Assembly (NCBI RefSeq): GCF_030013205.1
Contig: NZ_CP122648.1
DNA length: 64,000 nt
From: Escherichia coli
Lineage (GTDB): Bacteria; Pseudomonadota; Gammaproteobacteria; Enterobacterales; Enterobacteriaceae
Reading direction: 5' to 3' (one strand)
Of the stretch, positions 45,001-51,000 are shown piece by piece; position 1 is the stretch's first letter; each line of letters opens with the position of its first letter. Made by a program: the position numbers.

Positions 45001-48000
45001 TCATTAAATCTTTTCGCGAACTATTCCCGGAGGTTCGGCTCGAGCTAATCCAGGGGACGCCACAGGAAATTGCGACGTTGTTGCAAAATGGCGAAGCTGA
45101 TATTGGTATTGCCAGCGAGCGTTTGAGTAATGACCCGCAGCTCGTCGCCTTCCCGTGGTTTCGTTGGCACCATAGTTTGCTTGTTCCACTCGATCATCCC
45201 TTGACGCAAATTACACCATTGACGCTGGAATCAATAGCGAAGTGGCCGTTAATTACTTACCGACAGGGGATTACGGGGCGCTCACGTATTGATGACGCAT
45301 TTGTCCGCAAAGGTTTGCTGGCAGATATTGTATTAAGTGCGCAGGATTCTGATGTCATTAAAACCTATGTTGCTCTTGGGCTGGGGATCGGATTAGTTGC
45401 CGAACAATCCAGTGGTGAACAAGAGGAAAAGAATTTAATCCGTCTGGATACGAGGTATCTTTTCGATGCTAATACTGTCTGGTTGGGACTGAAGAGAGGG
45501 CAACTTCAACGTAACTATGTTTGGCGCTTTCTGGAACTTTGTAATGCAGGACTGTCAGTTGAGGATATCAAGCGCCAGGTGATGGAGAACAGTGAAGAGG
45601 AAATTGATTATCAGATATAGCAAAAAGCCCGCTATAAAAGCGGGCTTTTCAGAAATTTGGCTCCTCTGACTGGACTCGAACCAGTGACATACGGATTAAC
45701 AGTCCGCCGTTCTACCGACTGAACTACAGAGGAATCGCTGTTGAGGCACATCTTAACGGCGAAAAATCTTTTGTCAAACCCGATTTTTAAATTTCCCAAC
45801 TGTTTGCCGTTTCTATCAACAGTTTGTTGCATTTGCAGACAATTTGTTGGCGAAAATCTTTGCAGCTTTGCTGATTCTCCCTCATTATTTGAAATGTGGT
45901 TTCACTTTCTGCAATTAAGGTCGGCTTTGAATATCTCCTCTGCTTTACGCCAGGTTGTTCACGGCACTCGCTGGCACGCTAAACGCAAGAGCTACAAAGT
46001 GTTGTTCTGGCGCGAGATAACCCCGCTTGCTGTTCCTATCTTCATGGAGAACGCCTGTGTCCTGTTGATGGGTGTCCTGAGCACTTTTCTGGTCAGCTGG
46101 CTGGGAAAAGATGCGATGGCCGGCGTGGGATTGGCGGACAGCTTCAATATGGTCATTATGGCATTTTTTGCGGCTATCGATCTTGGTACCACTGTCGTTG
46201 TGGCATTTAGTCTCGGTAAGCGGGATCGACGACGAGCGAGGGTGGCGACGCGGCAGTCATTGGTGATCATGACGTTGTTTGCCGTGCTGTTGGCAACGCT
46301 TATTCATCATTTTGGCGAACAAATTATTGATTTCGTTGCGGGTGATGCCACGACAGAAGTTAAAGCACTGGCGTTGACTTATCTGGAGCTGACGGTACTC
46401 AGTTATCCAGCAGCTGCCATCACTTTGATTGGTAGCGGGGCACTTCGTGGTGCAGGGAATACGAAAATACCGCTACTGATTAACGGTAGCCTGAATATTC
46501 TTAATATTATTATTAGCGGCATATTGATTTACGGCCTTTTCTCCTGGCCGGGACTGGGATTTGTCGGGGCTGGGTTGGGGTTAACCATTTCTCGTTATAT
46601 TGGCGCAGTGGCAATTTTGTGGGTGCTGGCGATTGGTTTTAATCCTGCGCTAAGGATTTCGTTAAAGAGCTATTTTAAACCGCTGAATTTTAGCATTATC
46701 TGGGAAGTCATGGGGATTGGTATTCCAGCGAGTGTCGAATCAGTATTATTTACCAGTGGTCGGTTATTAACCCAAATGTTCGTTGCCGGGATGGGGACCA
46801 GTGTTATTGCCGGGAATTTTATCGCGTTTTCAATTGCGGCTCTTATCAACTTACCCGGAAGTGCGCTCGGCTCTGCTTCTACGATCATTACAGGCCGAAG
46901 GTTGGGGGTAGGGCAGATAGCGCAAGCAGAGATTCAGTTGCGGCATGTGTTCTGGCTGTCCACTCTTGGATTAACGGCCATCGCCTGGCTAACGGCTCCC
47001 TTTGCCGGGGTTATGGCATCGTTTTACACCCAGGATCCACAGGTTAAACATGTCGTTGTGATTCTGATTTGGCTAAATGCTTTATTTATGCCTATTTGGT
47101 CCGCCTCATGGGTGCTACCCGCTGGATTTAAGGGTGCTCGCGATGCCCGTTACGCCATGTGGGTTTCTATGTTGAGCATGTGGGGTTGCCGGGTTGTAGT
47201 CGGTTATGTGCTGGGAATCATGCTTGGCTGGGGTGTGGTTGGTGTCTGGATGGGAATGTTTGCCGACTGGGCTGTGCGGGCCGTGCTGTTTTACTGGCGA
47301 ATGGTTACTGGACGTTGGCTGTGGAAATATCCTCGACCCGAGCCGCAAAAGTGTGAAAAAAAGCCAGTTGTGTCGGAATAAACGACAAAATGCAGATTAT
47401 TTCAGCAAACGATTTCAAATTTAAAAAACAGGCTTTGACATTGTGGATGGGCATCGCTAATATTCGCCTCGTTCTCACGATTCCTCTGTAGTTCAGTCGG
47501 TAGAACGGCGGACTGTTAATCCGTATGTCACTGGTTCGAGTCCAGTCAGAGGAGCCAAATTCAAGTTTTCATGCTTATCTGTACGTCTCTATTTGTTTAC
47601 GATTCAGTAAGTTAGCGTGAAAATCCTTCCCGGTGCGTATCTGGTTTTCTCTCTGTATCGGGATAATTTGGTGGTCAGATCTGGGGTCAGTTTGGTTCGA
47701 TTCTGGAGTGACCCCCAAATGTCTTTAAACGATTCTAAAATCCGCAAGTTAAAACCCTCTTCCCGTCCGGTAAAACTCTCCGACTCTCACGGTCTGTATC
47801 TGCTCGTCAATCCGGGCGGTTCACGCATCTGGTATCTCAAATATCGTTTCAACGGAAAAGAATCCAGAGTCAGTCTTGGCGCATACCCGCTTGTCTCACT
47901 GGCAGAAGCCAGGCAACAGCGCGACGGTATCCGTAAGTTACTGGCGCAGAATATCAACCCGGCGCAGCAGCGCATGGCGGAGAAAGCGGCCTGCTCCCCT

Positions 48001-51000
48001 GAAAAGTGCTTTAAGGCAGTGGCGCTGGCCTGGCACAAAACCAACAAAAAATGGTCGGCTGATTATGCCGCCCGTATTCTCGCCAGTATGGAAAACCATA
48101 TCTTCCCGGCGATTGGTCATCTGCCAGTTGCCACTCTTAAAACGCAGGATTTACTGCTTTGTTGCGGGTTATCGAGGATAAAGGCTTTCTGGAAGTCGCG
48201 TCCCGAACCCGGCAGCAACTCAGCAACATCATGCGCTATGCCGTTCAGCAGGGGCTTACCGAAAGCAATCCGGCGCAGCATCTGGATGGCGTTGTCGCCT
48301 CACCCGTAAAGAATCACTACCCCGCGTTACTGCTGGAGCGGTTGCCCGAACTGCTTGGCCGCATCGGTGACTATCAGCAGGGCCGGGAGTTAACACGGCT
48401 GGCGGTGGTGCTGACGTTGCACCTGTTTATCCGTTCCAGCGAACTGCGTTTCGCCCGCTGGAGCGAGATCGATTTCAGGCACAAAATCTGGACCATCCCC
48501 GCCACCCGCGAGGCAATCGACAAAGTACGGTTTTCGGGGCGTGGCGCAAAAATACGTACCCCGCATATCGTGCCGCTCTCCCGCCAGGCGATTGCCATTC
48601 TGAAACAGATACAGGAGCTTTCCGGCCATCTGGATCTGGTGTTTCCCGGTGATCATAACCCGTACAAGCCAATGAGTGAAAACACCACCAACCGGGCGCT
48701 ACGCCTGATGGGGTATGATACGAAAACTGAAATCTGCGGGCATGGACTCAGGGCGATGGCCTGTAGCGCCCTGGTGGAGTCGGAGCTGTGGTCACGCGAT
48801 ACGGTGGAGCGGCAAATGAGCCACCAGGAGCGTAACAGCGTGCGGGCAGCCTATGTGCATAAAGCGGAGCATCTGGAGGCCAGAAAGGCCATGATGCAGT
48901 GGTGGTCGGATTATCTGGATGTGTGCCGCGAGGGGTATGTTGCGCCGTACATTTATGCCCGGCAGCATAAGGCAGCCTGAATCAGAAATAACGGAAATCA
49001 TTAAAAATGTAAAAGCAGATCCTGATTGACCGGGATCTGCTTATTGTATTGAGAAGTATTACCATTTTTCTGTTATTATCAATCGGAAAGTATCTAAAAA
49101 TATTTGGCCCCAAATAATTTTGGTGAAAACCAATCAATAAACCATTTATCAATAGGTAAGTACCGGAAATTATTCCAGTAGAATATTTTCAGGCGATTGC
49201 CTATTAATAAATACATTATTGATAGATAAGTGCCTTCTGTGATTTGTCCGCAAATCACAGAAGATGAAAACCTATCAATACGGGATATTTTCACGGAAAT
49301 ACCAATTAATACTCCAGAATATCTCCTGACCATATACTCTGAAACCTGTAAGAACTGCATCAGATATTGAGAGACCATATAGATATAAGTCTGAAATTAT
49401 TTTGTTTCCAATGATTTCAGGCGAAAACCTATCAATGCATCTGTTTTCAATAGGCAGCCACCTTCCGTGATTAACATGTTAATCACGGAAGGTGAAAAGC
49501 TATCAATAATCGATATTTTCACGGAATTACCACTTAATACATCCCAAAAAATGCGCCATAAAATACCGGGCAATCTTTCCTGATACACATTATCACTGCA
49601 CCAGCTATACAGAGACAAAATAATCTGCACCAGCCCCTGTAAATCGGTTATTTGTGCCAGTGTCCCGCCGCTCTACCTGTTCAGGGTTGTGCCAGTTTCT
49701 GGCCCTTTGGTTTTCGGCCCTTTCCGGTCAGGCGCTGTTACCCTTATTGCCCCTTAACCTTTATGACCCTTTCCCTTTCTGACGCAACCAGTTTATTTTG
49801 AAATGCTCCATGACAGTCTGCACCAGACTGTATTTTCACCACAGGATAACGATCACAAAGTGCAAAAAAATAACATGAAGCACCAAAGATTGTTAATCTA
49901 TATGTAGCAGGTAATGATGTCAAAAACTGTCGCAGCATTTTTTATAAAATTATGAGACATTCTGTGGGCATATAATATATGTCACAAGATGCAGGAAAAC
50001 AAAGAGAGAGTTTTCAGATATAATCCTGCGTTAGAATTAATGTGATGCCCCGGTGAATTTACATTTTAAAATTTCCCTGTCCCGTAATATCGGTAAAAAC
50101 GATTGAAACACCAGCTATTAATCGGGAACGTCTCGAGTGATTACAGGGTAATCACTATAATATCCCGGCAAACTATATTGGTTAAGCAGGAGAATCTGAT
50201 CAGTTGATATTTATTCGTCATGCTGTAACGATATTTTCACAATATAAACCCGTTCGCCCCCTGCGCCAGATCCGGTACAGAGGGTACGATAAATCGCTGT
50301 CGTTACGCAGTAACGTACTATTTTGCGACATTCATGAATTCAGTCATTCCTCCCTCCAGCGGTAGCCGTACACCTGTTTCACCCAGCGACCGCGACCGTC
50401 GCCATGACCCAGATCCGTCGCCGTCAGCGCCAGTGACTCCTTTTCGCTGAATCCCTGCGCCAGTATCCAGGACTGTCGTATAACGGGGACGCCCGCCTTT
50501 GGTGCCAAATACCACTTTTAGCCGGGTTTCACCGCGGGAAATGGCTTTCAGCCACGTTTTCAGCGACTGTGAACTCTGTACCGCCTCCTGCGAACGCAGC
50601 CCCATCAGCCGCGCAATCTCCAGCGCTGCTGCCAGCCCTGCGTCCTGAGTACGGGCTTTCTCCATCACCTGCCTGCGTCCAGCCTGTCTCAGCACGGCCC
50701 GCAACGCTGCCATTTCGTTTTGCAACGTTCGTAAACCAATATCCAGCTCCAGCCGTTCCTCAATGTAGCATTCGATATGGCGAACCTTGATCTGCTCCAC
50801 CCGCTGGATCTGGATATTCAGCGCCCGTAAATGTTCACTGAACCGTTTTGTAATATGGATACGGTCATTCACCGTTTTGAAGCTGCCGCCCGCTTTCTTC
50901 GCCAGCGCCTTCATTTCACTGCTTAATTTACTCATGAATCCCTCTGCAACAAAAACAAACAGTCTCCGGCGTGTGCTTTTTGGCTGCGCCAGAACGATAC

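Follow-up and report, generated by a model that had tools for sequence, protein, structure and literature searches.

The locus considered here raises the question of whether an integrase gene that is open in two different frames, downstream of asnW in Escherichia coli (contig NZ_CP122648.1), has truly been disabled or only appears so through an error of sequencing or assembly, and what its condition would mean for the genomic island that it belongs to. For the 64,000-nt stretch of this contig that was analysed (the window), the original prediction was that the integrase is split by a frameshift over 47719-48980, indicating either recent inactivation or an indel error. The split was borne out; two overlapping ORFs in different frames occupy the same coordinates as the RefSeq feature 'tyrosine-type recombinase/integrase, frameshifted' (Table 1). 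A scenario that we consider very probable is that this is a true pseudogene: the integrase of an asnW Rhs island would have lost one C, with a single origin and inheritance thereafter, and the island would now be immobile.

Table 1. Coordinates in the window of the integrase pseudogene, its lesion and the associated island features.
Feature	Position	Strand	Basis or remark
tRNA-Asn (GTT) asnW, integration target	47482..47557	+	ARAGORN; Rfam tRNA 72.6 bits; synteny
attL, perfect 20-nt direct repeat CCAGTCAGAGGAGCCAAATT	47542..47561	+	17-nt core search, extension by sequence reading
P4-type tyrosine integrase pseudogene	47719..48980	+	1262 nt; intact orthologues 1263 nt, 420 aa
Native N-terminal coding part	47719..48152	+	residues 1-144 plus TT of codon 145
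Lesion, one C lost	between 48152 and 48153	+	MAFFT alignments with intact alleles
Native C-terminal coding part	48153..48980	+	residues 146-420, now in the -1 frame
Second integrase-like gene, frameshift-truncated	50318..50935	-	Phage_int_SAM_2 + Integrase_1; RefSeq 'frameshifted'
attR, right 20-nt repeat copy, island end	58022..58041	+	17-nt core search, extension by sequence reading
yeeN	58489-59205	-	about 450 nt beyond island end

On translation, the N-terminal frame (positions equal to 1 modulo 3) runs from an ATG at 47719 to a stop at 48307-48309. The C-terminal frame (positions equal to 0 modulo 3), with a TAA at 48138-48140 directly before it, is open from 48141 to a stop at 48978-48980, so that the two overlap at 48141-48309. 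MAFFT alignment with each of five intact alleles from the asnW and asnT loci gave a single gap at column 435, and the comparison with intact orthologues that had been recommended earlier thus placed the indel exactly, as a C missing at 48152^48153. At this site the window reads GATTT^ACT (the C-less frameshift allele being GATTTACT) where the intact alleles read GATTTCACT, and codon 145 is changed from TTC (Phe) to TT-; the native peptide around the junction is ...KTQD-F-TALLRVIEDKGFLE... The frame switch had originally been put near 48158, within 'TQDLL/LRVIED', at a short T-run. The frameshift itself stood, but its true site is about 6 nt (2-3 codons) upstream, and although a TTT run (48150-48152) does directly precede the lost C, the deletion adjoins this run and is not within a homopolymer. 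Reading through in the N-terminal frame adds 52 aberrant residues past residue 144, for a total product of 196 aa, while a computed repair in which the C was put back restored a 420-aa ORF.

The domain content of the two pieces divides at the same point. In Pfam searches the N-terminal piece matched Arm-DNA-bind_3 (PF13356) at residues 3-87 (E=3.9e-25, profile positions 1-82 of 83) and then the first part of the central, core-binding domain profile PF22022 (residues 98-148, profile positions 1-52 of 96), and the C-terminal piece took up PF22022 at profile positions 52-95, followed by the catalytic domain PF00589 (E=6.3e-17). Because the PF22022 profile is cut exactly at the frame junction, this pattern is not due to chance, and the earlier description of an arm-binding N-terminal half and a catalytic C-terminal half in different frames agrees with it. 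The repaired protein contains R239 (IRSSE), H342-x-x-R345 (HGLR), H369 (SHQE) and Y377 (AAY), which, by motif, we take to be the catalytic residues of a tyrosine recombinase. It is similar to phage P4 Int (49.5% amino acid identity over 98% of its length, E=6e-127, tblastn), and the sequence matches in the PDB were all to single domains of relatives, either N-terminal or core-binding, with no full-length structure among them: chain 3jtz_A (the N-terminal domain of a 'CP4-like integrase', E=2.9e-35) and, for the core-binding domain, chain 2kkv_A (E=1.8e-21). Membership of NCBIfam NF007246 (PRK09692, integrase domain-containing protein) was rejected, as the repaired protein scored 231.3 bits against a curated cut-off of 434; it is related but not a member, and there is no ground for a narrower family name. 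The arm, core-binding and catalytic domains, the similarity to P4 Int and the adjacent tRNA gene with its duplicated 3' end are all those of a P4-type integrase. Since the ORF is interrupted by the 1-nt deletion, the gene is a pseudogene member of this family and presumably not a functional one.

An intact form of the gene exists at the same locus. The islands of E. coli 1190 and O166:H15 JNE21-003 occupy the same yeeO-asnW-int position as that of the window and share its gene order (int, second integrase-like gene, HTH, hypothetical, Rhs, TPR, then yeeN). Intact asnW alleles with 99.6% or higher identity to the window gene are present in 1190, 19KM1831 and JNE21-003; the one in strain 1190 shows 4 substitutions relative to that gene over 1262 nt, and its product (WP_000055678.1, 420 aa) is 99.76% identical to the repaired protein, K89E being the one difference. 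Unlike the window gene, the orthologue of the strain 1190 type retains the third base of codon 145, the C, and its annotation is that of an intact gene. The Rhs and TPR genes also differ in length, at 4182 and 549 nt with the intact orthologue versus 3993 and 561 nt in the window. The asnT alleles of O145:H28 and TUM9812, which served to locate the indel, were rejected as representatives of the ancestral state, being about 95-96% identical and part of a different island with T6SS genes; the ancestral state was taken from the strain 1190 asnW allele.

The deletion occurs in an identical 70-nt context in 49 of 5,426 complete E. coli genomes, which come from pigs, chickens and humans, from several countries and from many laboratories. 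A further 42 genomes of the same set match with a 71-nt span at the lesion site, and the annotation gives an intact integrase gene in all three asnW-locus examples of this longer form that were inspected. PGAP applied the label 'frameshifted' in five of five independent frameshift-bearing records inspected. Two marks of a genuine pseudogene, an intact orthologue at the same locus and a lesion reproduced in independent sequences, were found here. The frameshifted integrase is already known in the sense that RefSeq/PGAP annotates it as a pseudogene, and it is an instance of the ordinary decay of a mobile element.

Six frameshift alleles were sampled, and these share one haplotype made up of the deletion and the linked SNPs A47983 and A48126. 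They differ from one another by 0-2 substitutions, and no second disabling lesion was found in the six alleles compared. The presence of one haplotype in six alleles points to a single origin, in which case the deletion would have arisen once in an E. coli lineage and been inherited since. It is linked to at least four different YeeO protein alleles; it is not strain-specific, and it is older than the diversification of the clade found in pigs, poultry and humans. In 50 genomes, a figure that matches the number of frameshift-bearing genomes, the whole island (10.46 kb) shows identity of 99% or more, and as judged from these sequences the frameshift goes with a single variant of the island. The integrase allele itself is at least 99% identical in 73 genomes. 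Of the three substitutions that separate members of the frameshift clade, two are non-synonymous (P17L, within the arm domain, and R173C); this hints at relaxed constraint, but a sample of this size is much too small for a firm conclusion.

Long-read and pyrosequencing assemblies often contain single-base indels beside short homopolymers, such as the TTT next to the lesion, which would fit a true gene that is intact and a frameshift that is an error of sequencing or assembly. However, what has been lost is a C, located after the T-run and outside the homopolymer, the deletion is tied to two specific haplotype SNPs (a linkage that random errors would not yield) and the intact allele is present in closely related assemblies. 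The identical deletion recurs in 49 complete genomes that were assembled independently and that span many hosts, countries and laboratories. This excludes the indel-error alternative, and the probability that we would still assign to it is negligible. These assemblies amount to the resequencing that had been suggested as a check on the split, and they confirm the deletion. The other half of the original prediction, recent inactivation, is supported provided that 'recent' is understood in an evolutionary sense only; the gene has no second disabling lesion and is 4 substitutions from an intact asnW allele.

Accepting that the deletion is real, one could still suppose that a programmed -1 ribosomal frameshift or transcriptional slippage provides a low level of full-length integrase. 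A -1 shift can offset a 1-nt deletion and would give the native protein if it took place within 48141-48153. Nevertheless, inspection of this 13-nt interval revealed neither a -1 slippery heptamer nor a long homopolymer (there is no X XXY YYZ heptamer in AAA ACG CAG GAT TTA CTG, and the T-run is just 3 nt), and the ancestral and sister alleles are unshifted, which marks the shift as a derived lesion rather than something conserved. Recoding is not known in this integrase family, and we consider this explanation extremely improbable. It is also very unlikely, in our view, that the fragments are functional, with the 196-aa arm-binding piece or an internally initiated catalytic piece acting as a regulator or a dominant-negative inhibitor of excision. 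In keeping with such a role, both frames are free of further stops in six of six frameshift alleles, the N-terminal fragment has a complete Arm-DNA-bind_3 domain and an AGGA is positioned 9 nt before a TTG at 48159; the C-terminal fragment could in principle start at this TTG or at an ATG at 48231. On the other hand, the absence of further lesions is explained by the youth of the pseudogene, as no more would be expected in alleles 0-2 substitutions apart; the core-binding domain is cut mid-way, and the non-synonymous changes P17L and R173C, few as they are, hint at relaxed constraint. A more specific form of this idea, that the frameshift allele has been kept because its 196-aa product, with a complete arm-type DNA-binding domain and no catalytic activity, occupies arm sites and blocks excision of the window island, and possibly of the related HPI or pks islands at neighbouring asn tRNA genes, strikes us as highly improbable. 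If true, it would mean that the product stabilises the island and is not mere debris.

We therefore favor the true pseudogene and consider what its formation would entail for the island. With codon 145 reduced to TT-, translation would leave the native frame after residue 144 and end at a stop 52 codons on. The resulting 196-aa product would comprise the arm-binding domain and half of the core-binding domain with no catalytic domain, and residues 146-420, the catalytic part, would persist as an untranslated or orphan reading frame. From the sequence we infer that recombinase activity has been lost and that the island is immobile. The second integrase-like gene matches PF12834 (E=1.3e-40) and PF12835 (E=1.2e-28), the latter only over profile positions 17-91 of 149, and has an intact 294-aa relative in TUM9812. 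As this gene is frameshifted too, the island is probably fixed in place. With both recombinase-like genes broken, the island would be unable to excise or transfer unaided and would become a fixed piece of the chromosome, the usual fate of tRNA-linked islands.

The ends of the island appear unharmed. The Rhs-carrying island measures 10.48 kb and has perfect 20-bp direct repeats at both ends, the left copy being the 3' end of asnW, which lies in the local order ldtA-asnV-nac-cbl-asnU-yeeO-asnW (RefSeq annotation). The 17-nt core of the repeat occurs four times in the window, versus 0.06 occurrences expected, once at 58022 and once in the 3' end of each of the three identical tRNA-Asn genes. A longer, 25-nt tRNA-derived repeat was not found at the island end; its matches in the window were the three tRNA genes only. 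An HPI- or pks-type integrase elsewhere in the genome (approximately 70% amino acid identity) might act in trans on the intact direct repeats.

There is precedent for an island that is fixed at an asn tRNA gene. According to PMC8209727, the E. coli HPI is immobile and fixed at asnT, and the pks island has direct repeats of 17 bp on either side at asn tRNA loci. Like the window gene, the integrases of pks (at asnW) and HPI (at asnT) are P4-type proteins, of 420-423 aa, encoded directly downstream of tRNA-Asn at an equal distance, and they are 71% (pks) and 70% (HPI) identical to the repaired integrase at the amino acid level. Nucleotide identity of approximately 72% makes them a different integrase lineage, however, and unlike the window gene they are intact in the records inspected. 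Their islands also differ from that of the window in carrying colibactin or yersiniabactin cargo and no Rhs toxin. The immobile HPI and, probably, the window island have had the same outcome, with damage to the integrative module leaving the island fixed at an asn tRNA gene; what sets the window island apart is a broken integrase between two perfect direct repeats. No description of the asnW Rhs island is given in PMC8209727, and a literature search on asnW, integrase and Rhs returned papers on pks and HPI. Phage P4 Int shares the three-domain layout (arm-binding, core-binding, catalytic). Unlike the window gene it is a functional integrase of a phage satellite, and its target tRNA gene is another one, for leucine.

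The meaning of the lesion is small, in that one more tRNA-linked island has probably become fixed through decay of its recombination module. For annotators, the split is real and the gene should be kept as a pseudogene without 'correction'. In measurements of island excision, the frameshift allele, as carried for example by K_EC180 and ST2747, and the near-identical intact allele of strain 1190 could make a matched pair for use as a natural control. The loss of the C at codon 145, together with A47983 and A48126, provides a precise single-base marker for one lineage of asnW Rhs islands. Carriers of this marker lineage include ETEC and edema-disease strains from pigs, strains from poultry and some from humans.

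The integrase gene at 47719-48980 (+) is split by a frameshift, as the original prediction held, and the coordinates given for it are accurate. Two overlapping ORFs lie here in different frames. Pfam assigns to the first piece PF13356, an arm-type DNA-binding domain (E=3.9e-25), together with positions 1-52 of PF22022, a central integrase domain of 96 positions; positions 52-95 of PF22022 fall in the second piece, as does the catalytic domain PF00589 (Phage_integrase; E=6.3e-17). Given that the PF22022 profile is cut exactly where the two frames meet, these are the parts of one gene with one interrupting frameshift. 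When the gene was compared by megablast with 5,426 complete E. coli genomes, many relatives were 1263 nt long versus 1262 nt in the window, and the alignment with intact alleles contains a single gap and no other indel: in place of the GGATTTCACTGC common to all intact alleles, the window has GGATTT-ACTGCT. What is missing is the C that ends codon 145 (TTC, Phe); the gap falls between 48152 and 48153, and the native peptide at the junction is ...KTQDFTALLRVIEDKGFLE.... The switch had been placed near 48158, in 'TQDLL/LRVIED' and at a short T-run; it is real but lies about 6 nt further upstream, and although TTT immediately precedes the lost C, the deleted base is outside any homopolymer. Restoring the C yields a 420-aa ORF one residue (K89E) apart from WP_000055678.1, the intact protein of strain 1190, while the predicted product without it consists of 144 native and 52 aberrant residues.

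The original prediction left a choice between inactivation and an indel error, and the former is right: the frameshift is a real mutation. A lesion-centred 70-nt query found an exact, ungapped match in 49 of the 5,426 genomes, and 42 further genomes matched it over a 71-nt span, that is, with the extra base present. Sources of the 49 are pigs (Korea, Japan, O139:H1 edema-disease strains and ETEC collections), chickens, wastewater and chicken meat, as well as humans from several countries, and RefSeq/PGAP labels the gene 'frameshifted', with the same coordinates, in every record inspected. Furthermore, six frameshifted alleles combine the deletion with an A at each of two linked positions, 47983 and 48126, where three intact alleles at asnW (strains 1190, 19KM1831 and JNE21-003) have G and C. 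Sequencing error is excluded by these matching genomes, labels and linked bases; the deletion tracks a haplotype, which random indel errors do not.

Over 1262 nt, alleles carrying the deletion are 0-2 substitutions apart (two amino-acid changes, P17L and R173C, plus a synonymous one), and 4-5 separate them from intact alleles at asnW; no second disabling lesion was found in any frameshifted allele compared. At least four different protein accessions of YeeO, encoded by the adjacent core gene, are linked to the deletion, and the window's G at 48779 is derived within the frameshifted group, as the A seen in intact alleles is still present in strains N3 and GF43. An allele at least 99% identical is present in 73 genomes, about two thirds of which (49) carry the deletion. 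Taken together, allele divergence, YeeO linkage and the state of 48779 point to a deletion that arose once, recently enough to leave no further decay visible; it nevertheless predates some diversification and is not private to one strain.

We considered whether a full-length integrase might be restored by programmed -1 frameshifting, which is the direction that compensates a 1-nt deletion. Such a shift would be confined to 48141-48153, but the sequence AAA ACG CAG GAT TTA CTG offers neither an X XXY YYZ heptamer nor a long homopolymer, and since no sister allele has the shift, it is a derived state, not a conserved one. The arm-binding fragment could conceivably retain a function, but nothing positive speaks for this; of three substitutions inside the clade, two are non-synonymous. 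What remains at the locus is an ordinary, previously annotated pseudogene, and the genomic island that carries it is decaying.

The repaired integrase (window gene with the C restored) shares 99.8% identity with the intact allele at asnW and 96.7% with an allele that lies next to T6SS genes at asnT in O145:H28 (strain 12E115). Its identity is 71% with the integrase of the pks island and 70% with that of HPI, and over 98% of its length it is 49.5% identical to phage P4 Int. These identities place it in the P4-type family and, within that family, among the integrases serving asn-tRNA islands of Enterobacteriaceae; of the family's features, the window gene lacks only an intact ORF. The pks island has been described as having 17-bp direct repeats on both sides at asn tRNA loci, and HPI is also asn-tRNA-linked (PMC8209727); the repeat core of the island in the window comprises 17 nt of the 3' end shared by the identical asn tRNA genes. 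In E. coli HPI the right repeat is lost and the integrase kept (PMC8209727), a known parallel for immobilisation by a different route. Among the related integrases at asnT of other strains, one in TUM9812 sits beside an Ig-like-domain pseudogene. An integrase of the same lineage at the TUM9812 asnT locus (6001-7263 of the locus sequence) is unframeshifted and has an internal stop, Q to * (...MRYAV*QGL...). This independent inactivation shows that decay has recurred in this group of island integrases.

The pseudogene is the first gene of an island integrated at asnW, between ldtA-asnV-nac-cbl-asnU-yeeO-asnW (left) and yeeN-amn (right). A perfect 20-nt direct repeat, CCAGTCAGAGGAGCCAAATT, whose left copy is the tRNA 3' end plus 4 nt, encloses 10,460 nt (47562-58021). 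Searched with a slightly longer query (47558-58021; 10,464 nt), the whole island reached at least 99% identity in 50 genomes, a count that agrees with the number of frameshift carriers. The three tRNA-Asn genes have identical 3' ends, each with the 17-nt att core, and asnW is the sole occupied site among them.

Features of the asnW island and its surroundings
Feature	Coordinates	Strand	Remarks
asnV, tRNA-Asn (GTT)	43250-43325	-	
asnU, tRNA-Asn (GTT)	45658-45733	-	
asnW, tRNA-Asn (GTT)	47482-47557	+	
Left direct repeat	47542-47561		
Integrase pseudogene	47719-48980	+	
N-terminal ORF	ATG 47719 to stop 48307-48309	+	MSLNDSKIRKL...; frame translation
C-terminal ORF	48141 to stop 48978-48980	+	open right after TAA 48138-48140; frame translation
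AT-rich stretch	49150-49608	+	GC 0.33; two direct repeats of ~230 nt
Second integrase-like gene	50318-50935	-	PF12834 + PF12835; frameshifted; opposite orientation
EFASI RNA motif	50991-51118	-	RF02957; 100.8 bits (gathering score 51.2); full-length
HTH_35 gene	51852-52040	-	small
Hypothetical gene	52037-52498	-	
C4 antisense RNA	52552-52640	-	RF01695; 62.2 bits (gathering score 45); full-length
Rhs protein	within 53020-57746	+	1330 aa; DUF6531, RHS repeats, RHS core
TPR protein	within 53020-57746	+	after Rhs
Right direct repeat	58022-58041		

Lambda- and P4-type integrases require arm-binding, core-binding and catalytic domains in one polypeptide. Here the catalytic domain is out of frame and the core-binding domain cut in half; because of that established requirement, the island would have lost the ability to excise or integrate on its own and would be fixed at asnW, though both attachment-site repeats are intact. 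A related integrase could in principle act on the repeats in trans. The island's only other recombinase-like gene (Phage_int_SAM_2 + Integrase_1) is also broken, truncated after ~159 native residues, and therefore both recombinase genes are dead in the window. RefSeq labels this second gene 'frameshifted' both in strains with the frameshifted integrase and in 1190 and 19KM1831, where the integrase is intact; TUM9812 has an intact relative of 294 aa in its related island at asnT.

Rfam gives a strong match to the EFASI motif immediately 5' of the second pseudogene and on its strand; the motif has been described in association with integrase genes in Enterobacteria and has, to our knowledge, no known function. 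Downstream of the P4-type integrase, the AT-rich stretch comprises two tandem copies, 79% identical, each with an imperfect inverted repeat (e.g. 49206-49246 / 49251-49291); it gave no Rfam match and no convincing ORF, and could harbor binding sites of the arm type or a small element that has degenerated. The Rhs protein has eight RHS-repeat matches and an RHS core at residues 1126-1162, and its last ~168 residues gave no match in a Pfam search. A GC drop from ~0.60 to 0.40-0.35 at ~56500 fits a swapped C-terminal toxin tip and immunity gene; strain 1190 has at the same place an Rhs gene of different length (4182 nt) and a TPR gene of different length. The HTH_35 gene (189 nt; profile positions 1-58 of 75 only) may be C-terminally truncated, as its 1190 orthologue is 255 nt, and the adjacent hypothetical gene is intact in the window and frameshifted in 1190. 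Just upstream of this pair lies the C4 RNA (Rfam), a minor curiosity in that a P1/P7-type immunity RNA family occurs inside a small non-phage island.
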